Source: Candidatus Woesearchaeota archaeon (lineage in GTDB: Archaea > Nanobdellota > Nanobdellia > SCGC-AAA011-G17 > UBA489). From it: a stretch of 64,000 bases of DNA. Location of the stretch: positions 111,736 to 175,735 of the forward strand of contig JABIKK010000011.1 of assembly GCA_018655015.1 (NCBI GenBank). The letters are read 5' to 3'. Shown piece after piece: positions 1 to 46,450 of this stretch (within the stretch, counting starts at the first letter, position 1; each line of letters begins with the position of its first letter). The notes under the pieces were generated by a model, which saw only the letters and a list, made by a program, of their open reading frames with translations, did not search any database and was not told the origin of the DNA. The translations under genes were made by a program, and so were the position numbers.

Positions 1-1379
1 CCCATATAGGACATGCGTATCAGAAGATTGTAGCTGACGTTTTATCTAGATGGCACAAGCTTTTGGGAGAAGATGTATTTTATTTAACTGGAACCGATGA
101 ACATGGAAAGAAGGTTGCTGATTCTGCTGAAAAGGCTGGGAAAAAACCAAAGGAATTTGTTGATGAGATTTCTTTGAAGTTTAAAGAGGCTTGGAATAAT
201 TTGAATATTCAGCCGGATAGGTTTATTCGAACAACTGATGAAGATCATTTGAAAGTTGTTAAAGATTTTATTACTAAAGTTAATGATAATGGAGATATTT
301 ACAAGGGAGAGTATAGTGGTTTGTATTGTACTGGATGTGAAGCATATTACACTGAGAAAGATGCTCCGAATTTAGTTTGCCCCGTTCATGAGAAACCATT
401 AGAAACTTTGAAAGAAGAGTCCTATTTCTTTAAGTTGTCTAAGTATCAAGATTTTTTATTAGATTTATATGAAAAGAACCCTGAATTTGTTTCACCGAAA
501 GAGAGAAAGAATGAAGTTATTAATAGGGTAAAAGAAGGATTACAAGATTTTAGCATTAGTAGAACTTCTTTTGATTGGGGAGTACCTTTTCCATTGGACG
601 AGAAACATGTTACTTATGTTTGGTTTGATGCCTTGATTAACTATTACACTGCAGTTGTAGATAAGAAATACTGGCCCGCAAATTTACATTTGTTGGGGAA
701 GGATAACTCTTGGTTCCACTGTGTGTATTGGCCTGCTATGTTAAAGTCTGCAGGTATTGATTTGCCTTTGAAGGGTTTTAATCATGGATTTTTAACATTT
801 AATGGACAGAAAATATCTAAATCATTGGGAAACGTGATATCTTCAAATACCCTTGTTGAGAAATATGGTGCAGATGCAATTAGGTATTTTTGTTTGAGAC
901 ACTTTCCATTTGGTGATGATGGGGATTTTTCAGAAGATGCTTTAATTGAGAGACATAATAGTGAGTTGGCAGATAAGCTAGGGAATTTGGTTAGCAGAGT
1001 TTCTGCTTTAGTTGAAAAATATGATTTAAGTGAGACTGATGCGTTGGATGTTAGTGGAACTGTTAAGAAAGTAGAAGATCATTTGGAAAAATTAGAATTT
1101 GACAAAGCATTGAATGTAATTTTTGCTTTCATTGATTTTTGTAACGAATATATTCAAGGTAAGAAGCCTTGGGAGACCAAGGACAATAAGGTTCTTTACC
1201 AATTAAGTAATGCCATAAAGGACATTACCATATTATTGAGTCCTTTTATTCCTGAGACCTGCGGTAAAATTTCAAAGGTATTTAATTTTAAGATTGAATA
1301 TAATGGTCTTAAGGATAAATTGAAAATTAGTAAAATTAAAAAGGCAGAAGTAATGTTCAATAAGATAGAAAATGACTGA
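1..1379 (+). CDS. metG: Methionyl-tRNA synthetase, catalytic core plus anticodon-binding domain; N-terminus lies upstream of the window
   Basis: Frame 3 is open from nt 3 and reads HIGHAYQKIVADVLSRWHKLLGEDVFYLTGTDEHG. This is the class I HIGH motif sitting right at the window edge. Downstream are the MetRS-typical WFDAL, GKDNxWFH and KISKSLGN (KMSKS-like) motifs. Confidence 0.85.
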   Translation, partial: HIGHAYQKIVADVLSRWHKLLGEDVFYLTGTDEHGKKVADSAEKAGKKPKEFVDEISLKFKEAWNNLNIQPDRFIRTTDEDHLKVVKDFITKVNDNGDIYKGEYSGLYCTGCEAYYTEKDAPNLVCPVHEKPLETLKEESYFFKLSKYQDFLLDLYEKNPEFVSPKERKNEVINRVKEGLQDFSISRTSFDWGVPFPLDEKHVTYVWFDALINYYTAVVDKKYWPANLHLLGKDNSWFHCVYWPAMLKSAGIDLPLKGFNHGFLTFNGQKISKSLGNVISSNTLVEKYGADAIRYFCLRHFPFGDDGDFSEDALIERHNSELADKLGNLVSRVSALVEKYDLSETDALDVSGTVKKVEDHLEKLEFDKALNVIFAFIDFCNEYIQGKKPWETKDNKVLYQLSNAIKDITILLSPFIPETCGKISKVFNFKIEYNGLKDKLKISKIKKAEVMFNKIEND

Positions 1380-1701
1380 AGTTAGCTTTGATGATTGGGG
1401 AAAGTTGGATTTAAGAGTTGGGAAAATACTTGAAGTAGAGAATCATCCAAATGCCGATAAGTTATTTGTGCTAAAAGTTGATATTGGTGAAGAAAAACCT
1501 AGAACTGTTGTTTCTGGTTTAATAGGACATTATTCTGCTGAAGATTTAACTGGTAAGGAGGTAGTTGTCTTTACAAATTTAGCACCTATTGATCTTAGAG
1601 GAGTTAAGAGCGAAGGAATGGTTCTTGCAGCATGCAAGGGTGACAAGGTTGTTCTTCTTTCTCCTGAGAATTCAATTGATGCAGGAACTAGAATTAGTTA
1701 G
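1372..1701 (+). CDS. Stand-alone tRNA-binding OB-fold domain (Trbp111 / EMAP-II / Arc1p-C-like), normally the C-terminal appendage of MetRS
   Basis: The 109-aa product reads GKLDLRVGKILEVENHPNADKLFVLKVDIGEE...SEGMVLA, a typical Myf/Trbp111 domain. Its ATG overlaps the metG TGA stop by 8 nt (ATGACTGA). Confidence 0.7.
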   Translation: MTEVSFDDWGKLDLRVGKILEVENHPNADKLFVLKVDIGEEKPRTVVSGLIGHYSAEDLTGKEVVVFTNLAPIDLRGVKSEGMVLAACKGDKVVLLSPENSIDAGTRIS

Positions 1702-2317
1702 ATCCTTGATCGTTTAAGTTTAATGAAAATCCTAATGCAGTGTTTTTTCTTATTGTGAATTCTAAACCTTTTGAATGATACAATAATGATTTAATTACTA
1801 ATGTTGAATCTTGTTTTAGTGGCATTCTAACAACTTCTTCAGGTACACCAAAGATTGCGTAAATTTCAGTTTTTTCTAAGCCTGCTTTAGTACTTCCTAC
1901 TAAAAATTCATTGAATGTGGGTTTCATTGTTATTCTCTTTACAACACCATTATCTAAAAGAACAATCAATCCTGGTTCTTCTAAACCTATTGATTCTGAA
2001 TATTCTAGTGTTGAAGTTCCGCCACGATAATCTGTTTGTAAATCAGGAGATCCCAAAGTTTCTAAAAGAATTTGTGTTCTATCTCCAACCTTAAGTCCCA
2101 TTACAGAAACATCATTTGCATTGAATTCTTCTAATGAAAAAATATCTGTTTTAGTTATTTCATATTTTGCATCGCTTTCGTAATTATTATTTGGAGTAGA
2201 AATTACAAATGCAAAAACAGCAATGATTATTAAAACTAATATTATCGGAAGTAATGTGGTTTTGTTCTTTACCATCTTTTTTGTACTCATTTTTACTTTT
2301 TTAAAGGTTTTCTTCAT
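1694..2317 (-). CDS. Hypothetical membrane-anchored protein (N-terminal basic segment plus a single TM)
   Basis: 207-aa ORF with an N-terminal KKTFKKVK stretch followed by a hydrophobic helix. I see no recognisable catalytic motif. Confidence 0.4.
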   Translation of the reverse strand: MKKTFKKVKMSTKKMVKNKTTLLPIILVLIIIAVFAFVISTPNNNYESDAKYEITKTDIFSLEEFNANDVSVMGLKVGDRTQILLETLGSPDLQTDYRGGTSTLEYSESIGLEEPGLIVLLDNGVVKRITMKPTFNEFLVGSTKAGLEKTEIYAIFGVPEEVVRMPLKQDSTLVIKSLLYHSKGLEFTIRKNTALGFSLNLNDQGSN

Positions 2318-2334
2318 TTTATCATACTCTTGAA

Positions 2335-2408
2335 TGAGCCCGATCGGATTTGAACCGACGACCTCTCGATTATCAGTCGAGTGCTCTACCAGACTAAGCC
2401 ACGGGCTC
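2335..2408 (-). tRNA. tRNA-Ile (anticodon GAU)
   Basis: The reverse complement GAGCCCGTGGCTTAGTCTGGTAGAGCACTCGACTGATAATCGAGAGGTCGTCGGTTCAAATCCGATCGGGCTCA folds as a cloverleaf. Anticodon arm is CTCGA/CTGATAA/TCGAG, and there is a GTTCAAATC T-loop. Confidence 0.85.
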
Positions 2409-2463
2409 TTACTTTTAATTTCTTTTTATACCAATTTATAAGATTTTCTGGCGAGAAAAAAAG

Positions 2464-2536
2464 CGTCCCGGGAAGGATTTGAACCTTCGACCTCACGGTT
2501 AACAGCCGTGTGCTCTAACCACTGAGCTACCGAGAC
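2464..2536 (-). tRNA. tRNA-Asn (anticodon GUU)
   Basis: The reverse complement GTCTCGGTAGCTCAGTGGTTAGAGCACACGGCTGTTAACCGTGAGGTCGAAGGTTCAAATCCTTCCCGGGACG folds as a cloverleaf. Anticodon arm is CACGG/CTGTTAA/CCGTG. Confidence 0.85.
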
Positions 2537-2579
2537 TTGATAATAAACCTGATTTGGTTTGTTTAAAAGATTTTCCACG

Positions 2580-3479
2580 CTATCTTGTGAGAATAAATGC
2601 TAGGAGGATAATGAATCCTACGATTATGAGGGACATTGTGACAATTAAACCTGCAGCTTCGCCTTTTAGGAAAGAATCTATGAAGCTTTCTTTGTCTACT
2701 GTTAATTGCTGAGGAACTTGGATAGGAACACTTTCTTCAGTGGTTTTTGGTTCACAGCAGCAAGACTTTTCTGAAGTACAGTACTGGAATCCTTTGTTTA
2801 CTTCTCCATCCTGGCAGATGTTAACATTTGGGTTTGTTGGAACATCTCTGCAAAATGCTTCTCCAAAACCTTCTTCATTACAAATTTCGAAACAGGATTT
2901 CTTATTACAATCTGGAAAACATAGGAATGTTTCTCCTGGATCACAAACTCCATCTCCGCAAATGAATTCACTTTCTTCTTTTGCTTTTTCTAAATCTAGA
3001 TTAGCCGGTTCTAAAGACATTCCTGAAACTAGGATGAAAGAGTGTTCGTCAAGTAATGGGTAGTCGGGATAATTTTTTAGAATTAGTCCTGCCCTTCTTC
3101 GATCATCAGGTGTTGTTCCGGTCACAATTAAGTTGTTGCCATCTACTTTTATTATTGCTTGACCTTCTTCGTATGGCCAAAGATCACAGTCATACCCAAG
3201 GACTTCTTTCATGTAATCACTTCCACATGGCGGACCGACCAATATTTGAGGGAGGCTAACACTTATTTCCCCTTCAAGAACTGTTTTAACATCTAACAAA
3301 TTATGTTTGAGGAGTCCTAGTACAATCTCAGTTGCTGAAGATATATCTCCACCTAGGGAATTATCACCTAAAACCAAATAATAGTATTCGTCTGTATTTT
3401 CCATAATGTCCATTACGGTAGCTGCACTTGCTGTAGGGACTAGTATTAGAAGGATTAAAAATAAGTACGCTCTTTTCAT
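2580..3479 (-). CDS. Secreted Cys-rich protein with Sec signal peptide and C-terminal TM anchor (surface protein)
   Basis: The N-terminus MKRAYLFLILLILVPTASA looks like a signal peptide. A dense Cys cluster follows (CGDGVCDPGETFLCFPDCNKKSCFEICN...CCCEP). The C-terminus is a hydrophobic helix ending in a basic residue. Confidence 0.45.
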   Translation of the reverse strand: MKRAYLFLILLILVPTASAATVMDIMENTDEYYYLVLGDNSLGGDISSATEIVLGLLKHNLLDVKTVLEGEISVSLPQILVGPPCGSDYMKEVLGYDCDLWPYEEGQAIIKVDGNNLIVTGTTPDDRRRAGLILKNYPDYPLLDEHSFILVSGMSLEPANLDLEKAKEESEFICGDGVCDPGETFLCFPDCNKKSCFEICNEEGFGEAFCRDVPTNPNVNICQDGEVNKGFQYCTSEKSCCCEPKTTEESVPIQVPQQLTVDKESFIDSFLKGEAAGLIVTMSLIIVGFIILLAFILTR

Positions 3480-4381
3480 ATTTTTTTAAATATCATGAAA
3501 CCTTTTAATGTTTTCTCTAGATATTCCTTTGATTTTTTTGTTTGTTCGCCAGTTGTTAGGAATAATGTGGGCATTTTTTTGTTTTGGCCTTTTTGATGTG
3601 CTAACATTATGTCTTGATCTGAGACCTTTTTCTTGTTCTTTGCACATACGAACATTTCTAGGGGCCCTATTTGTGAGGCTATTTTTATTACGAAGTTAGA
3701 TTCTGAATTCTTTCTTACAATTTCTTTTTCTAGGATTTTGATATTACTCTTTGAGAAGAATGTTTCAATGTCTTTAGAGAAAGTGTCTTCTTTTTTTGTT
3801 TTTGGTGAAGGTTTTGTTTCTGGAACTATCTTTGTTTGATTTTCTTCAGGTCGCTTTATTGTTTTAACTTGTACGGGGATTTGTTTAACTTTTGTAATTG
3901 GTTGTTTAATTTGTGTTGGAAGTTCTTTGGATAAGTACCATTGCCATGCTGGCTCCCCATTAACATTTATTGGTTTTGAAAAATCAGGTATACTACTTAA
4001 TGCAACACGCATAACCGGCGTTGTTTCTTTTGCTTTAATTACTTCTTTTTCTTTTAGTAAATCATATGCTTTCTTTTCTGCATCTGGAAGATAATCGTAG
4101 AGTATCTCTAGCTTTTCTTCTTGGCCAGGAACGTAATAAACTCTTGAGCCTCCAACTTTTGCATTGCTTAATTTGATTGTTTTTGATTCTGTTAATTCGG
4201 AGAGTACTGCCCCCACAAAGAATGATTCTCTCCCAACACCTTGTGAAATTTTAACGGGGTATGATGGACCTTCTTTTTGTAAAAATTCTAGAACTTGTGC
4301 CTTAAGATTTTTAGTAGGATTTCTCTCTTCCCCATTTGGTTTGTTTGTAGCCCTCTCTGCTAAGGAATGTGCATCTAACAT
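3476..4381 (-). CDS. Winged-helix domain protein, function unknown (possibly a TFE/Rpc34-like wH)
   Basis: The N-terminal ~90 aa (VLEFLQKEGPSYPVKISQGVGRES...GGSRVYYV) look like a wH fold. The rest is Lys/Pro/Thr-rich low complexity. It overlaps the upstream gene by 4 nt. Confidence 0.35.
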   Translation of the reverse strand: MLDAHSLAERATNKPNGEERNPTKNLKAQVLEFLQKEGPSYPVKISQGVGRESFFVGAVLSELTESKTIKLSNAKVGGSRVYYVPGQEEKLEILYDYLPDAEKKAYDLLKEKEVIKAKETTPVMRVALSSIPDFSKPINVNGEPAWQWYLSKELPTQIKQPITKVKQIPVQVKTIKRPEENQTKIVPETKPSPKTKKEDTFSKDIETFFSKSNIKILEKEIVRKNSESNFVIKIASQIGPLEMFVCAKNKKKVSDQDIMLAHQKGQNKKMPTLFLTTGEQTKKSKEYLEKTLKGFMIFKKI

Positions 4382-4412: not shown

Positions 4413-4943
4413 TTATGGCTTTTTCCAAGCGATTTCGTAGTAAGTAACATCATCTTCTTCATCTACAACCCCAATTAAAAGGTTCTTTCTTGTTGAATGA
4501 GATACTCTATTTTTAGCTGAAAAATCATGCCACGTTAATGTATTTGATTCGTGTACTGGAAAAACAATCCATTTTGCGTGATCTTCACCAGGTTTGATTC
4601 CTTTGTCATATACTCTAAAGTCTGCTCCAAATTTTAGGGCAGTTTTTACAATGTAACCCTTTGCTCTTAAGTTGGAAAAGACTACGTATTTAACCCAGAA
4701 GTTTTTGTCTATCTTTCTTGCTTTTTTTAGGAAGTCTTCTTTTGAAAGTGATTTATTTTTATCTAAGAGTTCTATTTTCTTATTTTCTAATAGGAATAGT
4801 GCTTCGGATAATGAATACTTGAATTTGCCTGAAACTAGTTCTCCAAAACGACTTTTGTCATAGAGTTCTCTAGGTTGGGGTCCGTCTTCTGCTGTTGCCC
4901 CCTCACCCACAAAATTTGCTTGAAAGGTTTTCTTAGCTGCCAT
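4413..4943 (-). CDS. endA: tRNA-splicing endonuclease (short homotetramer-type EndA)
   Basis: 176 aa. The C-terminal catalytic domain reads LRAKGYIVKTALKFGADFRVYDKG...HAKWIV, matching the archaeal EndA Tyr/His/Lys catalytic-triad region. Confidence 0.75.
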   Translation of the reverse strand: MAAKKTFQANFVGEGATAEDGPQPRELYDKSRFGELVSGKFKYSLSEALFLLENKKIELLDKNKSLSKEDFLKKARKIDKNFWVKYVVFSNLRAKGYIVKTALKFGADFRVYDKGIKPGEDHAKWIVFPVHESNTLTWHDFSAKNRVSHSTRKNLLIGVVDEEDDVTYYEIAWKKP

Positions 4944-13860: not shown

Positions 13861-16800
13861 TTAAAGGTTGATTGTTAATTTTTCACCTAGTAGTTTACTT
13901 GTGTCGATTTGATCTGTAACTACACTTTCTTTTGCACCCGCATCATCTAAGCCATAAACAAGAATCATTAAACCATAATCTCCGCTAGTCATTCCTTCAT
14001 TTTTCATTTCTGAGGGGGTTATTTCCATGGTAGTGCTTCCCGTATCTGCAGACCTCATAACAATGGCTTGACCATTTTTTTCAATTACTGCTTTTAATTC
14101 TAGGTTGCTAGGGTCAAAGAAAATAAATTTGTAGTCTACTTCTTTATCTCTCAGACGAAGCTCTCTGAAAATCGATTCAATCATTAGATTCTCACTCTGA
14201 GGGTAAGATCTTATTGCAATGACGTTATTTTGAGGATCATATCTTAGATTAAAAGTTATCCTCCCTGGAAAGGAATCATAAATGGAACATTCATTTTCTG
14301 CTCTCAAAAGCTTACAAGTTCCCCTTGCATAAACTATGCATTGAGGGTCTTCACAAAATCCTAAATTTTGATCAACATATTCTGCACATAAAGGATTATC
14401 TGAACAAAATGAAGCCTTGCTTTCTCCCGGATCTTCATTCATGGAAGAATGAGATAATGAAGGTGGTTGTGAAGGGTTGGTCTGTTGATTATTATTTGTG
14501 TCGCTACTAATTTGCTTATTTTCAGTAGATACTGCTAAAGTTCTGTATAAATCTGCAAGTCCAAGTCTGAGCTCTATCTGAACTTTGGGGTCCGCTAATC
14601 CATTGTTATCGATTACATCTATGTAAATGTTAATTGCTTTTTCATATTCATCAGTTGAGATTGCAGATTTAATTCTCTCTTTTGCATCTTTGATATCTTC
14701 TGTTGTTAAGTAAACGGATTTTAATCCAAGTTTTTTTACGTAATCATTAATTCTATCTACGGCCCCTTGCGTTGCATTAGGTAATGTTTTTGTAAAGTTG
14801 TTCCAATCTATATCTTTGTTTACTGAATATTCTGTAACTATGTTTTTTGCTGAAGGTAGGTGTAACCAACAGAATCCTAAATTTCTTCCTTCATTGGGCT
14901 TTGGCCCTTCCCAGCATTCTCCAACTTCTTTCCAATCTGCGTCATCTCCAGGAACGAATGTTGAACATACTCTTGTTATTCCTGTGTCCAATAGCCCTGA
15001 TGAAAATCCACCTGCAACAACAGCTCCAGTTTTTGTAGCAGCATTAGTGTAAGGTCCACTTAAACTTGAGCCTGAAGGATTACATTGTTCTGCAGTTTGT
15101 ATTTCAGCTTGACCTGCTTCTTTTTCCGCCATTTTTTGTGCAACCCAATTTGCTGCAAAGCCAGAAGTTGTCTTACCAAATCCACATTCTTCCCTTACAC
15201 CATATGTTGGACTGCTGTAAGCCATACATACTTGGTTGTAGCCTTCGGGGGCATTGAAGTCAATGTTTTCTGAACTAAATGCATCAGGAGTTAGTCTCTT
15301 ATTTCTTACTAACCAGGCTATTGGAAGTCCACTTTGACCATCGATTGACTGGTGCTTTAGATAAACTGAAAATGAGAGTGGTTCATTTGCTCCAGCATAC
15401 ATTCTGTAGTATACCTTGTATGTTGATTGTGGAGGGAATGGAATATCTGAGTAAGGTACTACATCCATTATTGCTGTGAATTGTGGAGGACTTTCTGGTT
15501 GCATTAATCTATCTGTGAATGATCCGACCCCTGGAACCTTGCCATATACTGCGGACTTACAAACTTCTGCGCCTATCTCGGGTAGAGCTCCACCAGAGAA
15601 TTGTGCGAAAGTGTTTTTTGCATAATCTTGAGTGAAGAATTTTAATCCGTTGATGGATTGGTCCATGCTTGCATCAAAGTCGGTATATTCTGATCCTTCA
15701 TTATCATGAATTTTATTTAATATTGTTCCAACTAATCCACTTTTAATATTGAATATTGCGATTGCTTCTTTCCAAAGGACATCACATATGTAATAACTTC
15801 TTAACATGTCACATATTCCAACAGACTCGTCATCAACTAAAGATCTTTTTAGACAATCAGAATATTCCATTAACACAGTTCTAATGTTTTGTAGACCTGC
15901 ATAAATTCCAGTGATACAAACGGGCATTACAACTTGTCCGCCATCAAATCCTATATCTGTTCCCGGTATACCCCAGTTATGTAATCCTAAAATTGTGCTT
16001 CCAATAATTCCTGTTTCTGCCACATTATCAACTTTCCAGGTTCCACCTAAATCAAATCTACTTGGTGGACAAAGAACTGGATCACATGCGTTGAATAATA
16101 ATTTACATTCTGTTGGACTGTAGAATTCTACACAGGAAGGCCCTTTTGTAATTGGATCGTTTCTAATTGCATAATCAATTCCATTACAAATTACTTGATC
16201 TCTGTTTGAAGCTTTTGCTCTGTTAATTGTGCCAACACATGATTCAACTTTCTTAAGATCTGCAGTATTTTTCCCTTCTTTGTTCCACTTTTCTGTTGTA
16301 GCGCTTAGACTATTTCCTCCAAATTCTGTGTCATCTGCTCTTATTTCCTCATTAGGGTTTATACGACCAAATATTCTTGGTTCAAGCATTCTCCCTCCAG
16401 AAGTGTAGTCTACCTCGGCGTAGTGTGTTGCATCAATAGTCATCCTATGGATTTTGCCTGCATTTGGCCCGTCAGTATAGTAAGTTACCTTGGGGATATG
16501 TTTTACTCTTTGTTCAACTGAAGTTGAGGAGAGGGTGTATGTTTCTCCATCTGGAGAAAGTAATGATGTTGCATCTGGTTCGTTGCTTCCAAAGAGAATT
16601 AGTCCTCCCTTAGGAGAAGGATAGGCATAATTTGTTCTAGAACGTGCTAATAAAACTGCTACATTTGCCTCTTCTTCTATTTTTTGTGGAGCCCAATCTG
16701 GATGTTTTATCTTTAATTCTCCGGTTTTTCTTTCAATCCACATTTCTTCTACGTTTTGTGAAAGTTGTGAATCCCCAGGATCTAATTTGAATTTTGCCAA

Positions 16801-19761
16801 GTTACCCACAAATACTTTGTTATCATTTGGTAAGTAGGCTGACGATTGAGAATTATCTAATGTTGAAAGGTAATCACTATGGTCGGAATAACTTGGATCA
16901 GAGCGAAGTTCCCTAAACATCTCGGCATTTCTCTCTTCTACTGCAATTTGTAAGTTGGCTCTTTCTTCATCGGATAGTACATCACCTGAAGGATTCAATC
17001 TTTTTAATTCTTCATCATAGTTTTTATCTTCTTTTATAGCTACATAGGCATTAAGGTAATCCTTTGTGTTTTGGGAGCTTGAGTTTTGAATCATTCTCTT
17101 TTGAAGATACGCAAGATTTTCTAGTTGTACACTATTTTCTGGAGTTTTTTTAATACCACTCAGATCATCTGCATAACTATCTTTGGAAGCATATTCGTAT
17201 GCATCTTCAGTTTCTTTTAGAATTTGATTATATGCATCTTCGTTTTCAAAAACACATTCGTCCATGGCTAAACCTTGCCTTTTACATAACTCTCCTTGTT
17301 GTTCCCAGAATATCTCTGATGCTCTATCTTTTGCTCTACCTGAACCTGAACCAACCGTTGCCTTAAGGAAATTCCATGCAGCAATTGCAGTAAATACTCC
17401 GAAACAGAATTTCTTCCATGCCTCATGGATCTTTCCAACTTTTTCCAAAGTATCGTCTAACTTTAATAGCAATTTTTCTGTTTTGTCAATTTCTGATTCT
17501 ATTGAAGCTGAGAATAATGGTAGGTCGAATGCTCTTTTTTCAATTGGAATATGTAAATTAAATCTTGCCGCACTAAATGCTTTTTCGATATTTGGACTTA
17601 CAATTATATGTGCTTCATTGTGAAGTTCGACACCTTCAAGGATTACTAGTTGGGTTTTAGATGTGTCTTTGTTTTTTATTGGAATACTTAAACCATTTCT
17701 ATCGTCTCTTAAAATTGTCATATCACTCTTAAAAGTTTTATCTGTGGGAGAGAGAACTAAAGAGTTAGAATTTATCTTTTTAACAATCCAAGGTGAATAT
17801 CCTTCCATGAAAGGCATTGCTTCTCCCTCATGTAATGTATGTTTTTCTTTGGCTATGGATCCATCTGGCTTGTAAACCTTAACTGTTGCAGTTGATTTGC
17901 TCCCTTCTAGTTGATAATCTGTAACGCTTGAACCATCTAAGACTACAGTCACTAGTTCATCATTCTTTTCCTTCAGATCTATTTCGGCCTTAAGACTTTG
18001 TCCAGAAGGGTTTTTTATATATGCAGTTAGTAGGTCTACCCTACTTTGGATTTTAACAGGGGAAATTATTGATTCTGCTTCTGTTTTTTTGTCACCATTA
18101 TATGCTATAATCATTTCAAGTAATCTATTGTATTCTATTATTGCTTGATTATGATTTTTTAATTTCGCATGATAAATAACTGCTTTGTTATATTGTGCGT
18201 AGAACTCGGGGATTAAATTTTTGTCTCCACTTGCTGCACCCTCGTAACTAACTTCCGTGTCTCCATCTACTAAGGAAACTACGCTTGCATATTCGTCGGC
18301 AGATAGTTGGTAAAGTTCATTTGCTTTTTTATCATCGGGGATTGTTCCAAGAGAAAACTCTGCGGTTTGGTAAGTTTTCCAGTAAGTCCCTAGGAATTCA
18401 TTTAATCTTGCCCTTGCTAAATTGTGAATGATTTCAAAACTGCCATCTTTAGTTAACATCGCGGCAGTATCAGATTCTATTTGTGTAAGTAATGATTGCA
18501 TTGCTTTTGCATGTTCTTTTGAAACTGATGTAGGGTTCTCTTGAAATATATCTACACAGGGATTTAATGTTTTTAGTGCTGCATTGTAGTTGTCGGGTGT
18601 TGTTGCTGTACGAAGTTTTTCTTCTACATCTTTAACAGCAAAAGATAATTCACTTCCTTTTGCAATTGGTCCGCATCTCAGGACGAAGGTTCCAGTAATT
18701 CCCATGTTTTCATTTTTGGCAATAGGCAAGTCATCAAATTCAATCTCTCCCGCTGCAGACCTTACAGATATCGGAAATCCTGCAGTTTGTAGTCTGCCAC
18801 TAGGTGTCCTGAAATCTGCATGTAAATTATTGTCCCTTAGTTCTATTCTCTCTAAAGTTATTCCTGATCCAGGGTAGATTGATTCTCCTTCAGCTACAGT
18901 ATGTGTTTCTGGCACTCCGTCTCTAAGAACCATAATGTCTAAAGTTCTCCCACCAGATTTAATATCTTTAAGATAAACATTAAACTTGTCAAAAACCTGA
19001 CCTGGAGAATAAAACCTACTTCTCCTTAACGTTCTTGATTTTTTTCCTTTTTCTATTCTTAGATCATCTTCTATGAGATTACCATTGTTATCATAAATAT
19101 CAAATATTGCATAGTTAGAAGATATTTCTTCAGCTTCAATGTAGATGTTTAAATATTTTTGATTTTCCCTGTTGCTTCTTTCTATAGATTTTTCTCTAAT
19201 AACCATTTTTGTTGGGCTTTTTCCAATTCCTGAAGAAACATCAAACAAAACTCTTGAATCAACTTCGATTATGATTTCATCTGGAACATTAGATTCTTTT
19301 GGAATTCTTGCAATAGGGATTTGTAAGTAACCCATGTTATCATAGGTTAATGGTTGTGTTCTGTCTCTGAAGTATCTCGGTCTTCCAACTCTTACAGGCA
19401 GATCTTCTGGCACAGTTACAACATTGTATGAAAGAATATCTATGTCATGAATTTTTGGGACTGTGATAGCCGGATTACTTGGCGTTCCTGAAAGTATTGC
19501 ATATACTAATGCTCCCTGATCTTCTAAAATGCCTGTTCGGAGTATTGATGGTTGATACTCTTTTACGTTGATTATTATGTCTTCCCCTATTATGTCTGAA
19601 ACTGTTGGAGATTCTGTAAGACGTCTATCTAATTCATCCCCTATACTTCTTGCTTGGTCCCCTATATTTGTTTTAACTATTTGACCTGATGCTATTGGTA
19701 ACGTTAGCACTAGGAAAATCATAAACATTGAAATTAGTTTTTTAAGTTTCATTTTATTCAA
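13861..19761 (-). CDS. Giant secreted/surface protein (1966 aa) with N-terminal signal peptide
   Basis: Uninterrupted 5.9 kb ORF. N-terminus MNKMKLKKLISMFMIFLVLTLPIASGQ. A Cys-rich module lies around CVGTINRAKASNRDQVICNGIDY...CKLLFNACDPVLCPP, and CSDNPLCAEY...CEDPQC near the C-terminus. No TM outside the signal peptide. Confidence 0.6.
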   Translation of the reverse strand: MNKMKLKKLISMFMIFLVLTLPIASGQIVKTNIGDQARSIGDELDRRLTESPTVSDIIGEDIIINVKEYQPSILRTGILEDQGALVYAILSGTPSNPAITVPKIHDIDILSYNVVTVPEDLPVRVGRPRYFRDRTQPLTYDNMGYLQIPIARIPKESNVPDEIIIEVDSRVLFDVSSGIGKSPTKMVIREKSIERSNRENQKYLNIYIEAEEISSNYAIFDIYDNNGNLIEDDLRIEKGKKSRTLRRSRFYSPGQVFDKFNVYLKDIKSGGRTLDIMVLRDGVPETHTVAEGESIYPGSGITLERIELRDNNLHADFRTPSGRLQTAGFPISVRSAAGEIEFDDLPIAKNENMGITGTFVLRCGPIAKGSELSFAVKDVEEKLRTATTPDNYNAALKTLNPCVDIFQENPTSVSKEHAKAMQSLLTQIESDTAAMLTKDGSFEIIHNLARARLNEFLGTYWKTYQTAEFSLGTIPDDKKANELYQLSADEYASVVSLVDGDTEVSYEGAASGDKNLIPEFYAQYNKAVIYHAKLKNHNQAIIEYNRLLEMIIAYNGDKKTEAESIISPVKIQSRVDLLTAYIKNPSGQSLKAEIDLKEKNDELVTVVLDGSSVTDYQLEGSKSTATVKVYKPDGSIAKEKHTLHEGEAMPFMEGYSPWIVKKINSNSLVLSPTDKTFKSDMTILRDDRNGLSIPIKNKDTSKTQLVILEGVELHNEAHIIVSPNIEKAFSAARFNLHIPIEKRAFDLPLFSASIESEIDKTEKLLLKLDDTLEKVGKIHEAWKKFCFGVFTAIAAWNFLKATVGSGSGRAKDRASEIFWEQQGELCKRQGLAMDECVFENEDAYNQILKETEDAYEYASKDSYADDLSGIKKTPENSVQLENLAYLQKRMIQNSSSQNTKDYLNAYVAIKEDKNYDEELKRLNPSGDVLSDEERANLQIAVEERNAEMFRELRSDPSYSDHSDYLSTLDNSQSSAYLPNDNKVFVGNLAKFKLDPGDSQLSQNVEEMWIERKTGELKIKHPDWAPQKIEEEANVAVLLARSRTNYAYPSPKGGLILFGSNEPDATSLLSPDGETYTLSSTSVEQRVKHIPKVTYYTDGPNAGKIHRMTIDATHYAEVDYTSGGRMLEPRIFGRINPNEEIRADDTEFGGNSLSATTEKWNKEGKNTADLKKVESCVGTINRAKASNRDQVICNGIDYAIRNDPITKGPSCVEFYSPTECKLLFNACDPVLCPPSRFDLGGTWKVDNVAETGIIGSTILGLHNWGIPGTDIGFDGGQVVMPVCITGIYAGLQNIRTVLMEYSDCLKRSLVDDESVGICDMLRSYYICDVLWKEAIAIFNIKSGLVGTILNKIHDNEGSEYTDFDASMDQSINGLKFFTQDYAKNTFAQFSGGALPEIGAEVCKSAVYGKVPGVGSFTDRLMQPESPPQFTAIMDVVPYSDIPFPPQSTYKVYYRMYAGANEPLSFSVYLKHQSIDGQSGLPIAWLVRNKRLTPDAFSSENIDFNAPEGYNQVCMAYSSPTYGVREECGFGKTTSGFAANWVAQKMAEKEAGQAEIQTAEQCNPSGSSLSGPYTNAATKTGAVVAGGFSSGLLDTGITRVCSTFVPGDDADWKEVGECWEGPKPNEGRNLGFCWLHLPSAKNIVTEYSVNKDIDWNNFTKTLPNATQGAVDRINDYVKKLGLKSVYLTTEDIKDAKERIKSAISTDEYEKAINIYIDVIDNNGLADPKVQIELRLGLADLYRTLAVSTENKQISSDTNNNQQTNPSQPPSLSHSSMNEDPGESKASFCSDNPLCAEYVDQNLGFCEDPQCIVYARGTCKLLRAENECSIYDSFPGRITFNLRYDPQNNVIAIRSYPQSENLMIESIFRELRLRDKEVDYKFIFFDPSNLELKAVIEKNGQAIVMRSADTGSTTMEITPSEMKNEGMTSGDYGLMILVYGLDDAGAKESVVTDQIDTSKLLGEKLTINL

Positions 19762-21736
19762 ATGTTGGATTCCTCATTTTTTTACTAAATTGTCCTTGAC
19801 TCGTATAAACATTATTTAATTCTTCAAATGATGTCGGTGTTTTCCCCCTATAAGAGTATAGTGCAATTTTATTTGAAGTAGCCAATACTCTTCGATCTAC
19901 ATTCCATGATGTTGATCCCCCTCCAGCTACAACTGAGTCTAATTCAATTGGATCAATTTTTTGTTGCGTACATTTAGTTTCTGTTAATCCAACAATGCCA
20001 CCAATGCCCCTCTTTGGAACTTCTGAACAAATTTCTATTTCTCTTTCTGGGAAATTAAAACCGCCAGATGTTTCAACCATCAATGTTGATGATACTTTGT
20101 AATTACCTGCGACCAATTTTAACTTTTCATTTGAAGGATAGTAGTAAGTAGTAAAATATTCTTTGTCTTCATTCTCAAATTGGAATAGTATGCTTTCTGT
20201 GTCATAAGGAGATCTTAGTATCCCTTCATCATCAATTATTATTTCAACAGGTAATGCGTAATAAGGCTCCAATGGGACGTTAACCATTCCTTCTTGGTTA
20301 GTATCTACTTCAAAACTAGATGTGTGATATCCTTGTTTAGATGCAATCATTTTTCCACCAATACATTGTGGGAATTGGGTTGTTAGTGAGTATGTGCTTC
20401 CTTCTTGCCTGGTTCTACCGGATTCACATTCGGTGAAAACGCACTGTAATGAAATGTCTGCACCATCTAATGGGACAGATGACCCATCTGCAGCTATACC
20501 TAATGCTGTAACTTTTAGAGTTGTGTCCTTTCTTTCACATATTCCAGGATCGTCTTCAAATTGTGGAACTAAGAATTGATTTTTCTTAGCTTGATTATTA
20601 TCAATCACTGCAACGAAAGGAAATTGGAAAGTGTAATCTTCCTCAGTTAAGGTTGCAAGCACTGGGAATTTTAGGTCATACACAAAATGATAATCATTTA
20701 AACAAAATAGAGGGAGTAAAAATCTTGCTGCTTCGTTTTCTGATGTGAAAGGTTTACCCCTTAGTAGTTCTGAATCTGTTCCAATGACGTCCATCATAAA
20801 TGGCCAGGAAGGGGATGAGATTAATGAAACCGTTAGGTCTTTTTCTTTTTTCTTAAATGTGTCATGTATTAATTGTTCATCTTTTCTATCCGTTATCCTA
20901 AAGTCTGTTCCTTCTATCTTTAATGTAGGAATATTTAATGCTAAGATGGATTTTAGGTCTTGAGCTACTTGTGTTTTCAACCAGGTTCTTGGAGTACATT
21001 CAAAGTCTACGCCTGAGAAAGGAATTTCATCGTAAACAACCATTGTTTCTAATGTGAAGTTTTCAACGAAACCAGTTCTAGTTTCATACTCGAAGAGTTC
21101 TAAGGCACGAGAGTATAATCTGCCTAACGGTACATTTGAAATTGTTCTGAACTTTGTGAAGGTTTGTGCAGTTTCCTTATATTTAACTTCTAGAAGCATT
21201 GAAACATCCGCTATTACTGCCTCATTCCCAATTTCAATTTCAATCTCTGGAGAATTGTGTTCTATAATGTAGCCTTCACTTTTGAATATAGTGTAATCAT
21301 TTAAACAAGAATCTAATTCTGACTCCATGAATTGTTCTAACTCAGTTTCCATTTCTTGTTTTGAAGGTACTTGTGTTTTTTCTAGATTATTTTGTGTTAA
21401 GAATGACCAGTAGGGAACAGTTAATCCATCATTACCAAAGATGCTTAATCTATTTGTTAATGGGTTATATGCTGTTGGAGGAAAGTCTCCTTCAGGCGTT
21501 ATTATATGTCCACCCTTTAATCCAAGTTCTGCAGTTCCATCATCTAAGGATTGTTGTAAGCAATCATTTGTAAAAGAATGTACTTTTTCTATTTGACTTA
21601 TTGTTGGTTGCTCTGATAAAGTTTCTTTTTTTAGTGAATCGAAAATTTGTTCTCTAAAGTATACTCCGGTTATTACTGCTGCAAGTATTACTATTCCTGC
21701 AATTATGAAAGCTGTAGCTTGGGCCTTTTTATTCAT
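19754..21736 (-). CDS. Membrane-anchored extracellular protein (660 aa) with an N-terminal signal-anchor
   Basis: N-terminus MNKKAQATAFIIAGIVILAAVITGVYF, then a soluble Cys-containing region. Its stop overlaps the start of the giant gene by 8 nt. Confidence 0.5.
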   Translation of the reverse strand: MNKKAQATAFIIAGIVILAAVITGVYFREQIFDSLKKETLSEQPTISQIEKVHSFTNDCLQQSLDDGTAELGLKGGHIITPEGDFPPTAYNPLTNRLSIFGNDGLTVPYWSFLTQNNLEKTQVPSKQEMETELEQFMESELDSCLNDYTIFKSEGYIIEHNSPEIEIEIGNEAVIADVSMLLEVKYKETAQTFTKFRTISNVPLGRLYSRALELFEYETRTGFVENFTLETMVVYDEIPFSGVDFECTPRTWLKTQVAQDLKSILALNIPTLKIEGTDFRITDRKDEQLIHDTFKKKEKDLTVSLISSPSWPFMMDVIGTDSELLRGKPFTSENEAARFLLPLFCLNDYHFVYDLKFPVLATLTEEDYTFQFPFVAVIDNNQAKKNQFLVPQFEDDPGICERKDTTLKVTALGIAADGSSVPLDGADISLQCVFTECESGRTRQEGSTYSLTTQFPQCIGGKMIASKQGYHTSSFEVDTNQEGMVNVPLEPYYALPVEIIIDDEGILRSPYDTESILFQFENEDKEYFTTYYYPSNEKLKLVAGNYKVSSTLMVETSGGFNFPEREIEICSEVPKRGIGGIVGLTETKCTQQKIDPIELDSVVAGGGSTSWNVDRRVLATSNKIALYSYRGKTPTSFEELNNVYTSQGQFSKKMRNPTFE

Positions 21737-25762: not shown

Positions 25763-25878
25763 TGAGCCCAGCCGGATTTGAACCGGCGACCTCCAGCTTT
25801 CTTAGAGCTTGTTTCCTTTTCTAAAACGAAAAGGCGTCATATAAGACTGGCGCTCTAACCAGACTAAGCTACGGGCTC
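25763..25878 (-). tRNA. Intron-containing tRNA. Predicted mature anticodon is UAU (tRNA-Ile), with a ~41-nt intron at the canonical 37/38 position.
   Basis: 5' exon is GAGCCCGTAGCTTAGTCTGGTTAGAGCGCCAGTCTTATA. The intron is TGACGCC...CTAAGAA. 3' exon is AGCTGGAGGTCGCCGGTTCAAATCCGGCTGGGCTCA. Anticodon stem CCAGT/GCTGG closes only after removing the 41 nt. Confidence 0.7.
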
Positions 25879-32944: not shown

Positions 32945-34054
32945 TTAGGGCAACCAAGTTTTGTCATTCTTTAGTTTTTGTGGGAGATACTTATCTATAA
33001 CATAGTTTAATCCCCATTTAGCTAATGCTTGTTGCTCTGCACGTTGTCCAGATTTTACTTGTTGTTTGATTGCATTTTGCCATTCTTTGTGTTGTTTTAC
33101 GAATGGATCGTTCTTTAATGCGTCTTTTGCACGTTTAATATCTACATCTTTTAGTGGATGTGTTGGAAGTTTGTAATCTACTATGTCTTGAGGAGTTATT
33201 CCAATGAATCTTGCTTGAGGTACACAGAAAAACTCGTTTAGATGAGCAGCATTACCGGATCCAACTTTTAGAGTTCTATAAATATTGAAAAATGCATACA
33301 TATCTCCATCGCAGAATGCGTAAACTGGAATCTTCTTTTCATCTGCTAATCTTCTAATGAATCTTCTACAGGCTCTTGTTGGGACCCCCCCCATAGATAT
33401 TAAAATACAGTTAGCCTTTTTCCAATAACCATGTTTGTTTAATCTTTCAAACATACCTGCTGTTTCAATTGCTAAAATAAACTTAGCTTTTGTTTCAAAT
33501 TTTAGATGTTCAACGGAGGTTGGAACAGAATAAGCTCCAGAACCGAACTTAGTACAATCAATCTTAAGTTGAGCACCAGTATTTGGATCTTTATCCACCA
33601 CTACTAGTTCCCCAGCAACAGCTCCACCTTTTTCTTCTGGAATGAAACCTAGTTGTTCACGATTGATACCGAACATTGCCTCTACATCATCCATAACAGT
33701 GTCTGACTCGGGTTGCTCTTTGAATCTCGCATCTCCCCAGTTTTTTGAAACATAGTATGCTTCTCTTTTAGTTGCAATGTCATTAGTTTTCAAAAGGTTT
33801 TTTGAAAGTCCCATCATTTTCAAGGTTTGTGCAAATGCTTTGATTGTTGTTACATTAAGTGCTCTTGTTTTTACTCTTCCTAAAAGTTCAAAGAATCCTC
33901 TTTTAGGGTCGTATTTAACATTGCTAAGCGCCCTTATTGGAAAGTTCATTTCAGGACTTTTTTTCTTTAGGATTTTTTTGTAAACATCTTTTGCAGAATC
34001 ATCTATTGTTTTGATTGTTTCTGTGTTAGTTCTCTTTTGTTTTTTTTGAGTCAT
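32945..34054 (-). CDS. top6A: DNA topoisomerase VI subunit A (Spo11-like)
   Basis: Winged-helix CAP domain with a catalytic Tyr region, then a Toprim domain. It overlaps top6B by 4 nt in the conserved B-A operon order. Confidence 0.9.
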   Translation of the reverse strand: MTQKKQKRTNTETIKTIDDSAKDVYKKILKKKSPEMNFPIRALSNVKYDPKRGFFELLGRVKTRALNVTTIKAFAQTLKMMGLSKNLLKTNDIATKREAYYVSKNWGDARFKEQPESDTVMDDVEAMFGINREQLGFIPEEKGGAVAGELVVVDKDPNTGAQLKIDCTKFGSGAYSVPTSVEHLKFETKAKFILAIETAGMFERLNKHGYWKKANCILISMGGVPTRACRRFIRRLADEKKIPVYAFCDGDMYAFFNIYRTLKVGSGNAAHLNEFFCVPQARFIGITPQDIVDYKLPTHPLKDVDIKRAKDALKNDPFVKQHKEWQNAIKQQVKSGQRAEQQALAKWGLNYVIDKYLPQKLKNDKTWLP

Positions 34055-43603: not shown

Positions 43604-46450
43604 CTAGAGCTTGTTAAATGCTATTTTGAATGTGTAGTCTTTGATTTTCTCTTCTTTTTGGACATTATACTGGCCATCTAGTGCTCCAAATGCTAGATTT
43701 ACTGCTCCAACTCTTTCCATTAGTTGTTCTTTGAAGGCCATTAAGTCGTAGTCTGAATCAATAACTAATGAGATTCTATCTCTTGGCACTAGGTTTGCTT
43801 TTTTTCTTAAAGCTTGAACTTTTCTTGAAACTTCTCGGAAGTATCCTTCTAGTTCTAGCTCTTTTGTTATTTTAGTATCTAATTTTGCTGATACTTCATT
43901 ACCTTCTACCTTGGTGATATCTAATTTTTTTAGATTTACTTCATCAAGTATTAATTCTATGAATTCTTTGTTTAACTTGTCTGGTGAGATGATACTTGCA
44001 CTAGACAATGGTTGTCTAACTGAGATTTTTGCTTTTTCTCTTTCTTCTAGTATCCTACTTACTATTTCTCTTGTTATTGTCATTTGTTCATTTAGTTTTT
44101 TATTAATTGATTTCTCATTAACTCTTGGCCATGATTCTAAGTGAACTGATTCTTCAATTTTATTATTCTTTTTGAACATTAGTTGTATTTCTTCAGAAAT
44201 GAATGGTGTTATCGGAGCCATTACTTTTGATAGGGAATGTAATGCGAATGCTAAAGTTTGAATCGCGTTTGCTTTATCTTCCTTATCTTCTGATTTGAAT
44301 CTATCTCTACTTCTTCTTACATACCATTTTGAAAGAGTTTCGATGTATGATGCTATTTCTCTACAAGTTTGAGGAGTATCGTATCCCTCTAGTGATTCAG
44401 TTACGTTTTTGATTAATGAATTAGTTTGACTTATGCACCATTTGTCGAGTATGTTTTTGGAGTTGGGTTCTTTTAATGAAACTTTTTCATTTCCAGACAA
44501 TTCATAGAAACTTTTTATGTTTGATAGAAGCATTACTACTTTTCTGTAAACTTCTTTTACTTCGTCTTCGTGGAAGTTTAGATCTTGTGCCTTCATTAAT
44601 TGTGTAGACATTAAGTAGAACCTTAACGAGTCTGCACCGTACTTTTCAAAGATTTCATTTGGATCTGGATAGTTCTTCTTTGATTTTGACATTTTAGATC
44701 CGTCTGAAGCTAGAATGTTTCCAGATACAACTACGTTTTTGAAGGGAGCTTTATCGAATAGTAATACAGAGATTACATGCATATAATAGAACCAAGCCCT
44801 TACTTGGCCCACATATTCTGATACGAAATCGCAAGGGAAATTCTTTTCAAACAATTCCTTGTTTTCGAAAGGATAATGCTTTGCAGCGAAGGGCATTGCG
44901 CCTGATTCAAACCAACAGTCTAGTACTTCTGGAATTCTTTCCATCTCTTTCCCACATTTGCAATTTAGTTTAATATCGTCTACTATGTGTTTGTGGAGGT
45001 CTACATTGTCATTAAGCTTCTTTGTAGAATTTTCTTGTAATTCTTTTATTGAGCCAATTACCTTGACTTCCTCACAATCATTGCATTTCCAAACTGGTAT
45101 TGATGTCGCCCAGAATCTATTTCTTGATATGCTCCAATCTGGGGCGGTTTCTACTATGTGTTTGAATTGACCTTCTTTAATGTTTTTAGGATACCAATTA
45201 ATTTGTTTGTTTTTCTTTAGTAATTGTGCTTTTATTTTTTGTATATCGACGAACCAAGAGTTAACTGCATTGTAAAATAATGGAGTTTCACATCTGTAAC
45301 AGAAAGGATATTCATGTGAATAATCTAATTTATCATAGAGTAAATTTCTTTCTTCCAAATCATTTAGTACTTTTTCATCTGCTTTTTTGAACCAAGTGTC
45401 GATCCATTCTTTTGGACCAAGATGTAATTTACCATGATGCCCTAGATGTTGGATAACTGGAAGGTCATATTTTTTAACCATTTCATAATCAAACTCCCCA
45501 TAGAGTGCCATGTGAACAATTCCAGTTCCATCTTCAGAAGTTACTTCATCCCCTCCATTAATTACATAATGTCCTTTTTTGTCTGAAGGAATGTGGTATA
45601 GTGGTTCGTACTCTTTGTGAATTAGTTTTTCGCCTTTTAGTGTATCTACAACCTTATAATCTCCATTTAGAGTTTCTAATCTGTCTTTGACTAAGATTAA
45701 GAGTTCTCCGTTGTGCTCAACTTTTACGTAATCTAGTTTTGCGTTGATTGCTAATGCAACATTACCAATTAGTGTCCAAGGAGTTGTTGTCCATGCTAAA
45801 AAATAAGTGTTTTCTTCACCTTTTAGTTTGAATTTTGCTGTTGCTGTTTTTTCTGTTATTGTTTTGTAACTCTTATCCATTGCAATTTCTGTGTTTGATA
45901 AAGGTGTTTGGCATCTTGGGCAAAATAACAATACTTTTTTTCCTTCGTAGATGTATCCTTTATCATAAAGTTTTTTGAAAATATTCCATACTGATTCCAT
46001 GTAGGAATTATCCATTGTTTTGTAAGAATTATCAAAATCTATCCATTTCCCCATACGTCTAACTGTTTTTTTCCATTCTCCTGCAAAGTCTAGAACCTTT
46101 GAGCGACAGAATTCATTAAACTTCTTTATGCCCATCTCTTCTATTTCTTTTTTTTGTTTGATTTTTAGATCTTTTTCTGCAATGTTCTCAATTGGAAGTC
46201 CGTGGCAATCCCATCCCCATCTACGTTCTACTCTATGTCCTTTCATAGTCCAGAATCTAGGGAATAAATCTTTGGAAGTAAGGCCTAAGATATGTCCGTA
46301 ATGTGGGGTTCCTGTTGCAAATGGAGGTCCATCATAGAATAGGTATTGCTTATCTTTGGGTTTGGAGTCTACTGACTTTTCAAATATTTTGTTTTTTTCC
46401 CAAAACTCAACTAATTTGTTCTCCTTCTCAGTTATGTTGGAACCAGCCAT
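43604..46450 (-). CDS. ileS: Isoleucyl-tRNA synthetase
   Basis: HIGH region PFATGTPHYGH, KMSKS motif and a CP1 editing-domain region. 948 aa, which is compact. Confidence 0.9.
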   Translation of the reverse strand: MAGSNITEKENKLVEFWEKNKIFEKSVDSKPKDKQYLFYDGPPFATGTPHYGHILGLTSKDLFPRFWTMKGHRVERRWGWDCHGLPIENIAEKDLKIKQKKEIEEMGIKKFNEFCRSKVLDFAGEWKKTVRRMGKWIDFDNSYKTMDNSYMESVWNIFKKLYDKGYIYEGKKVLLFCPRCQTPLSNTEIAMDKSYKTITEKTATAKFKLKGEENTYFLAWTTTPWTLIGNVALAINAKLDYVKVEHNGELLILVKDRLETLNGDYKVVDTLKGEKLIHKEYEPLYHIPSDKKGHYVINGGDEVTSEDGTGIVHMALYGEFDYEMVKKYDLPVIQHLGHHGKLHLGPKEWIDTWFKKADEKVLNDLEERNLLYDKLDYSHEYPFCYRCETPLFYNAVNSWFVDIQKIKAQLLKKNKQINWYPKNIKEGQFKHIVETAPDWSISRNRFWATSIPVWKCNDCEEVKVIGSIKELQENSTKKLNDNVDLHKHIVDDIKLNCKCGKEMERIPEVLDCWFESGAMPFAAKHYPFENKELFEKNFPCDFVSEYVGQVRAWFYYMHVISVLLFDKAPFKNVVVSGNILASDGSKMSKSKKNYPDPNEIFEKYGADSLRFYLMSTQLMKAQDLNFHEDEVKEVYRKVVMLLSNIKSFYELSGNEKVSLKEPNSKNILDKWCISQTNSLIKNVTESLEGYDTPQTCREIASYIETLSKWYVRRSRDRFKSEDKEDKANAIQTLAFALHSLSKVMAPITPFISEEIQLMFKKNNKIEESVHLESWPRVNEKSINKKLNEQMTITREIVSRILEEREKAKISVRQPLSSASIISPDKLNKEFIELILDEVNLKKLDITKVEGNEVSAKLDTKITKELELEGYFREVSRKVQALRKKANLVPRDRISLVIDSDYDLMAFKEQLMERVGAVNLAFGALDGQYNVQKEEKIKDYTFKIAFNKL

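Follow-up and report, generated by a model that had tools for sequence, protein, structure and literature searches.

Overlapping genes for the catalytic chain and a putative free-standing tRNA-binding subunit of methionyl-tRNA synthetase in a Candidatus Woesearchaeota archaeon

The stretch of DNA analysed in this work (64,000 nt of contig JABIKK010000011.1, Candidatus Woesearchaeota archaeon; hereafter, the window) opens inside metG, the gene coding for methionyl-tRNA synthetase (MetRS), whose 3' end overlaps a short open reading frame (ORF), ORF2, coding for a tRNA-binding domain. According to our analysis, the two genes very probably represent a genuine two-gene MetRS that has been maintained during evolution, in which metG codes for the catalytic (alpha) chain, and ORF2, probably coupled to it at the translational level, codes for a beta subunit predicted to bind tRNA in trans.

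No stop interrupts the metG frame between base 3 and the TGA at 1377–1379, and the gene occupies positions 1–1379 of the forward strand, without the C-terminal tRNA-binding domain. ORF2 lies on the same strand (1372–1701); it starts with the ATG at 1372–1374, ends with the TAG at 1699–1701 and encodes 109 residues, its frame being shifted by +1 with respect to that of metG. The ORF2 start and the metG stop share eight nucleotides (ATGACTGA, 1372–1379). The sequence, the ORF list and the translations bear out what an earlier inspection of the letters alone (the sequence-only reading) had described, i.e., a separate 109-residue ORF whose ATG lies within the last codons of metG. A TAG stop occurs in the ORF2 frame at 1366–1368 of the forward strand, two codons 5' of the ATG; therefore, any frame switch into ORF2 would be confined to bases 1369–1379. 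The split falls exactly at a domain boundary of MetRS: the last motif conserved in the synthetase core, ...KAEVMFNKIEND (of the general form ...LFxKIE), closes the alpha chain, and the residues with which conservation begins in the C-domain, MTEVSFDDWGKLDLRVGK, open the beta chain. Short overlaps between genes on the same strand are routine in the window (for example, 4 nt at 3476–3479, 34051–34054, and 47514–47517).

The metG gene is clipped by the 5' edge of the window: because the window starts inside the gene, its product is short of 19 N-terminal residues in comparison with that of a longer contig with the same sequence (L001, 4575–6008), where the full-length protein has 477 residues and starts with MTKNTFYV. 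The assignment of metG to MetRS is based on the family score, on the HIGH and KMSKS-type motifs, and on the anticodon-binding domain. The protein matches the family model TIGR00398 (metG) with 461 bits (E 5.5e-138; cut-off 336) and the domain tRNA-synt_1g (PF09334) with 1.1e-96, in addition to Anticodon_1 and Anticodon_3, and it ends at the anticodon-binding domain, the beta subunit being left to a separate gene. All of its signatures lie on the forward strand. The HIGH motif of class I synthetases is found at 3–14, where the translation opens with HIGHAY (...NAEPHIGHAY in the context of L001), and the KMSKS-type signature, in the form KISKS, at 810–824 (...FNGQKISKSLGN...). The best solved relative of metG is the Aquifex aeolicus MetRS (2CSX, 5.5e-135), and the Thermus thermophilus enzyme was also retrieved. 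A single zinc knuckle, CTGC...CPVH (Cys-x2-Cys ... Cys-x2-His), was read from the translation at 327–389; in the light also of the best PDB matches (2CSX and 1A8H), we take it to be the single knuckle of the Thermus/Aquifex type.

As for ORF2, its product matches the whole of the tRNA_bind profile (PF01588, positions 1–96 of 96) with 2e-32 and 111.6 bits (cut-off 27), and it passes the cut-off of the NCBIfam model TIGR00399 (metG_C_term), which bears the name "methionine--tRNA ligase subunit beta", with 127.1 bits over residues 3–108 (cut-off 116.65). The profile matches of both metG and ORF2 are far above chance. The best solved relatives of ORF2 are the MetRS C-domains of Pyrococcus abyssi (1MKH, 5.8e-32) and Nanoarchaeum equitans (5H34), followed by Trbp111 (1PYB, 1.2e-20); the scores are 113 bits for the archaeal MetRS C-domains versus 77 for Trbp111, and the Pyrococcus horikoshii protein 2CWP matches with 2.4e-12. 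Two other identities were checked and discarded. ORF2 is not a CsaA (67.5 bits with TIGR02222, whose cut-off is 119.65, and 58 with NF007496, whose cut-off is 171), nor is it a free-standing tRNA-binding protein of the YgjH type: of NF007492 and the related PRK10089 models, NF007492 scored best, with 104.1 bits, and its cut-off is 150.

An AlphaFold (AF2) model of ORF2, built on 24 homologues, reached a predicted local distance difference test score (pLDDT) of 92.1. Its comparison through Foldseek with the solved structures gave template modelling (TM) scores of 0.92–0.93 with 5H34, 0.91 with 1MKH, and 0.90 with 8VTZ, with 108–109 of the 109 residues aligned. The model shows an OB fold of the Trbp111 type, complete with the two terminal segments through which the solved homologues dimerize. 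Moreover, ORF2 is under purifying selection, with a ratio of nonsynonymous to synonymous substitution rates (dN/dS) of 0.13–0.21 at a dS of about 0.8, which rules out a pseudogene. Taken together, the profiles, the fold and the dN/dS values identify ORF2 as a MetRS beta subunit, that is, a free-standing OB-fold protein of the Trbp111/MetRS C-domain type.

The two chains also differ in their affinities. The metG core (P0121) scores 454 and 426 bits with the bacterial enzymes of the Aquifex/Thermus type and 181 bits with the archaeal one of P. abyssi, to which it is only distantly related, whereas ORF2 is nearest to archaeal MetRS C-domains. A bacterial-like core beside an archaeal-like ORF2 suggests, on the basis of these sequence scores, that the alpha and beta chains may have separate evolutionary origins.

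The split is conserved well beyond the window. The exact ORF2 protein is present on 17 contigs, and the junction agrees at every base among contigs of six independent metagenome assemblies, which derive from different samples (ENA, assembled with MEGAHIT or SPAdes; JGI; Logan) and show no more than one mismatch over the 1.3–1.8 kb compared. The diverged relatives compared span 83–50% identity. In the closest of them (L007; 83% protein and 81% nucleotide identity), the same 8-nt overlap is found; in L008 (71% identity) the overlap is 14 nt, in L012 (CP070794.1, a contig of 648 kb) it is the 4-nt ATGA, and in L011 the beta gene is separated from metG by a gap of 51 nt. The best match in a scan of the GTDB representative genomes is 62% identical, and the representative Woese-, Pace-, Nano-, and Iainarchaeota show overlaps of 4 or 11 nt, gaps of 1 nt, and gaps of 48–51 nt. 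Over the 13 junctions considered, nine show either an overlap or a gap of 1 nt (11 if L020, L040, and L041 are taken as 1-nt gaps), and the beta gene is offset by +1, +2, or 0 according to the lineage. This variation of the frame offset implies that no conserved recoding mechanism is involved. A different organization was observed in L009/L010 (2686–3330), where the beta protein is 62% identical to ORF2, and the alpha and beta genes are unlinked: no metG is present within 3 kb of the beta gene, and sigma-like genes are also absent from that locus. Its beta-gene neighbours are those of the window, with the genes for L4, L3, a histone, and two small proteins upstream and a 204-residue gene downstream. 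Likewise, several GTDB loci have no metG in the 2.5–3 kb flanks of the beta gene that were examined.

The same picture emerged from the protein searches. The best 120 ORF2 homologues are all 105–127 residues long, and several of them are named "methionine--tRNA ligase subunit beta". Of the 120 proteins most similar to metG, 86 are unfused (468–545 residues), including all those with at least 79% identity; the other 34 are fused, with 67–73% identity in the core, and are interleaved with the unfused ones. The fused enzymes of sister DPANN lineages (599–697 residues; P0137, P0149, and P0140, for instance) are single polypeptides on a core 67–73% identical to the alpha chain of the window. At the split point, they carry a low-complexity linker, usually of 20–65 residues and of about 10 in the shortest. 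All the fused relatives having a linker, the linker-less protein that would result from joining the two frames of the window is not matched by any natural protein in the relatives examined. The comparison with related DPANN metG genes, which the sequence-only reading had proposed, found the closest relatives to be split; its guess that the DNA belongs to DPANN was correct, the source being named Candidatus Woesearchaeota archaeon by NCBI. The same reading had also held that this OB domain is normally fused to the synthetase, which is half true: fused forms do exist, but all of the best 120 homologues are of free-standing size and examples of free-standing proteins are known. Its suggestion of a gene fission giving a free-standing archaeal Trbp111 stands as regards the two-gene split, which is attested by the six assemblies and by the relatives; fission is only a possible direction of the change, split and fused forms being interleaved.

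How the pair would work can be outlined by homology. A single transcript probably carries both genes, with the translation of the second probably coupled to that of the first at the overlapping stop and start (ATGACTGA), so that a ribosome ending at the metG TGA would reinitiate at the ATG five bases upstream; 1372–1379 is, hence, the presumed site of termination–reinitiation coupling. The alpha chain would act as a monomeric enzyme. The beta chain, by analogy with 1MKH, 5H34, and 1PYB, is predicted to form a Trbp111-like homodimer gripping the 3'-CCA end of tRNA, and it would serve as a tRNA-capturing cofactor acting in trans, either by contacting the alpha chain or by merely raising the local concentration of tRNA. 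Data on tRNA or RNA binding are available for the N. equitans MetRS C-domain and for the Aeropyrum pernix Trbp (PMC7175363). In Trbp111, the co-crystal with tRNA and mutagenesis identified K33, R75, I77, F78, S82, and M85 as residues of the pocket for the 3'-CA (PMC11286949). The Trbp111 residues K33, P74, I77, S82, and M85 are kept in ORF2 as K30, P72, L75, S80, and M83; over the 24 aligned homologues, no substitution occurs at S80 or M83, and hardly any at K30 and P72. The ORF2 pocket is likely to be functional, judging from these residues, though not identical to that of Trbp111.

Some observations weigh against this interpretation. We infer the existence of two separate polypeptides from conservation, and no Shine–Dalgarno-like motif was seen 5–10 nt 5' of the ORF2 ATG, a lack which is compatible with reinitiation without proving it. 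In the pocket, R75 of Trbp111, whose change to alanine nearly abolishes binding (PMC11286949), corresponds to I73 in ORF2, a position that is hydrophobic across the family, and F78 corresponds to R76, an invariant arginine also present in the LRG motif of the P. abyssi C-domain; these changes may point to a binding mode that differs in detail. Finally, the beta gene is not adjacent to metG in several lineages, and the protein may bind tRNAs in general and not be a subunit dedicated to MetRS.

This last possibility deserves more attention, since it would make ORF2 functionally independent of MetRS, as a general tRNA-binding protein or chaperone similar to Trbp111, YgjH, or CsaA that happens to lie beside metG. 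Close homologues occur away from metG in L009/L010, in several DPANN, and in many bacterial genomes, so that the unlinked beta genes leave room for such a role, and Trbp111 itself recognizes the 3'-CCA end, which all tRNAs have in common, and not tRNA-Met specifically (PMC11286949). Nevertheless, we regard it as rather unlikely: ORF2 passes the TIGR00399 model only, failing those of CsaA and of the YgjH type; among solved structures, it is most similar to the MetRS C-domains of P. abyssi and N. equitans; no fewer than 11 diverged DPANN loci have the two genes tightly linked stop to start, with independent geometries; and the partner metG lacks exactly the domain that ORF2 supplies.

A programmed +1 frameshift at the metG stop (GAC-U-GAA, of the prfB/antizyme type), through which some ribosomes would produce a fused alpha–beta chain, either in addition to a separate beta chain or in its place, is very improbable. 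It is true that skipping T1377 within the TGA would lead into the ORF2 frame at GAA (1378), and that the +1 offset recurs in L007, L008, L015, L020, L040, and L041. However, when the junction was checked as a site of this type, no slippery sequence was found: the GAC (Asp) codon in the P site would face ACU after the shift, with no possibility of re-pairing, and no Shine–Dalgarno-like stimulator was seen. The slippery heptamer that the sequence-only reading had suggested looking for is, accordingly, absent from 1369–1379. Furthermore, the offset is not constant, with four relatives having the ATGA overlap (+2) and two having the beta gene in frame 0 after the stop and a gap of about 50 nt; in other relatives (L009/L010 and several GTDB loci) the beta gene is unlinked; and the product would be devoid of the linker present in all the natural fusions. 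Relatives down to about 50% identity, which keep two genes through varied junctions and non-conserved offsets, speak against the frameshift that had been envisaged.

The other explanation that had been put forward, namely an error of sequencing or assembly, or a frameshift that inactivated the gene recently, with a single-base indel near 1369–1379 splitting one fused metG, is almost certainly wrong, for although ORF2 lies in the +1 frame, so that one missing base would merge the frames, and a short A-run (AAAA, 1369–1372) is located by the junction, the same junction was recovered from six independent assemblies made with different assemblers, the split is kept at 19–23% nucleotide divergence and, with quite different junctions, farther out (the 648-kb contig included), the merged protein would lack the linker of at least about 10 residues that every fused relative has, and ORF2 carries an ATG precisely where the domain begins, with an in-frame stop two codons upstream.

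The two-gene organization is already known and ordinary, being covered by a curated family model and by routine annotation: in NCBI, the exact proteins of the window are recorded as "methionine--tRNA ligase" (MBT3866005.1, metG) and "methionine--tRNA ligase subunit beta" (MBT3866006.1/MBT6044668.1, ORF2; Candidatus Woesearchaeota archaeon). Among the papers searched, we found none dealing specifically with a split MetRS in DPANN; reviews on this group name split AlaRS, reverse gyrase, and Dph1/2, and MetRS is not among them. The closest precedent is represented by A. aeolicus, whose unfused MetRS (497 residues, 2CSX) belongs to the same subtype as the alpha chain of the window, and whose Trbp111 (1PYB and 8VTZ) is, like ORF2, a separate OB-fold protein of about 110 residues, forming a homodimer. 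The latter was deposited as "methionyl-tRNA synthetase beta subunit", so that the alpha/beta naming is shared by the two pairs. The Aquifex genes are presumably unlinked, whereas those of the window are adjacent and overlap by 8 nt. In addition, the host of the window is an archaeon and Aquifex is a bacterium, and ORF2 is nearer to archaeal MetRS C-domains than to Trbp111, and has Ile and Arg in place of the R75 and F78 of the latter.

Among solved structures, those closest to ORF2 in both sequence and fold are the C-domains of the P. abyssi (1MKH, 1RQG) and N. equitans (5H34) enzymes. Along their full length they are about 50% identical to ORF2, with which they also share the motifs HPNADKL and LRG; unlike ORF2, they are covalently joined to the synthetase. 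They are dimeric tRNA-binding OB folds that need the 3' NCCA tail (PMC7175363, PMC11286949). N. equitans, the classical DPANN representative, has a fused MetRS and no independent copy of the C-domain (PMC7175363). Nor is a free-standing archaeal Trbp a first, since the A. pernix Trbp and the P. horikoshii protein 2CWP are, like ORF2, independent Trbp-fold polypeptides of about 110 residues. These are more distant in sequence, and, in comparison with them, ORF2 replaces a missing MetRS C-domain and is probably coupled to metG through the start/stop overlap; P. horikoshii also has a fused MetRS. The A. pernix protein binds RNA with a 3' CA overhang (PMC7175363). Lastly, the alpha and beta chains of the N. 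equitans AlaRS offer another example of a DPANN synthetase in two pieces (PMC11392972, PMC6349945). In that case, it is the enzyme itself that is divided, and activity requires both halves; in the window, only the accessory domain is apart, and the catalytic chain is complete.

The fused relatives deserve some further comments. Their C-domains are of two subtypes, with HPNADKL, as in ORF2 and P. abyssi, in seven of the 34 and IEGADKL, similar to Trbp111 and Escherichia coli, in 23. In 16 of the 34 (P0137–P0240), a methionine is located exactly at the start of the C-domain (IEGIxTM...), and it may represent, judging from its position, the relic of a former separate start codon. In a neighbour-joining tree of the metG relatives (Kimura distances), about 12 changes between the split and the fused state were counted; the sequences being nearly equidistant and the tree having no support values, this figure indicates only roughly that more than one change took place, and it may suggest recurrent fissions, fusions, or exchanges of domains. 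In its broadest form, the idea would be that the split/fused state of MetRS is unusually labile in Woese-, Pace-, and Nanoarchaeota, through repeated fissions and re-fusions and the exchange of C-domains on a near-constant core, the overlapped form being an intermediate, the linkers translated former spacers, and the methionine a relic start; we consider this scenario doubtful, and we advance it as speculation.

Downstream of ORF2, on the opposite strand, lies a gene coding for 207 residues (1694–2317), whose 3' end overlaps that of ORF2 by 8 nt (1694–1701), a convergent overlap that is a sign of tight gene packing. A gene in the same position is found in L001, L007, L008, and L009. Its product did not match any Pfam family and has a hydrophobic N-terminal stretch that, judged by eye, is a probable membrane anchor. 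It is the first of a conserved trio on the reverse strand (1694–4381; 207, 299, and 301 residues), with no Pfam match, which follows the beta gene in the same four contigs; the 299-residue protein is rich in cysteine and hydrophobic at both the N- and the C-terminus.

On the other side of metG, a divergent gene about 330 nt upstream, just beyond the 5' end of the window, codes for a protein resembling sigma factors of the extracytoplasmic function (ECF) type, with Sigma70 regions 2 and 4 above the Pfam cut-offs. Sigma-like genes of this kind, encoding 138–164 residues, are located on the reverse strand of L001 (3749–4243), L007 (749–1222), and L008 (774–1190), and a weaker paralogue lies alongside in L001 (3188–3709). 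A bacterial-type sigma factor is unexpected in a Woesearchaeota genome; the contigs harboring it are archaeal and also carry genes for a histone, TFIIB, and a tRNA-splicing endonuclease. The latter gene is present in the window as well, at 4413–4943. Moreover, an Rfam tRNA match of 116 nt (25763–25878, reverse strand; 56.8 bits), not reported by ARAGORN, is probably an intron-containing archaeal tRNA. Two other loci on the reverse strand may be mentioned, i.e., two consecutive ORFs of 1966 and 660 residues with an apparent 8-nt overlap and no Pfam match (13861–21736) and a class Ia synthetase of 948 residues (tRNA-synt_1, Anticodon_1, and DUF5915), encoded by a single unsplit gene (43604–46450).

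As far as annotation is concerned, two genes should be called at this locus, MetRS and MetRS subunit beta, with no frameshift repair; pipelines that flag adjacent ORFs matching the same fused reference would wrongly mark it as a frameshift. Beyond correct annotation, the significance of the finding is small. What is mildly notable is that, in close DPANN relatives, split and fused forms are interleaved. This pattern among enzymes with 67–73% identity, only sketched here, could be used as a natural experiment, on a small scale, on how domains are split and fused. In these compact genomes, the stop/start overlap would keep the two pieces of MetRS stoichiometrically linked, and the pair would add one more natural case in which a tRNA-binding module of the Trbp/EMAPII type works in cis or in trans.

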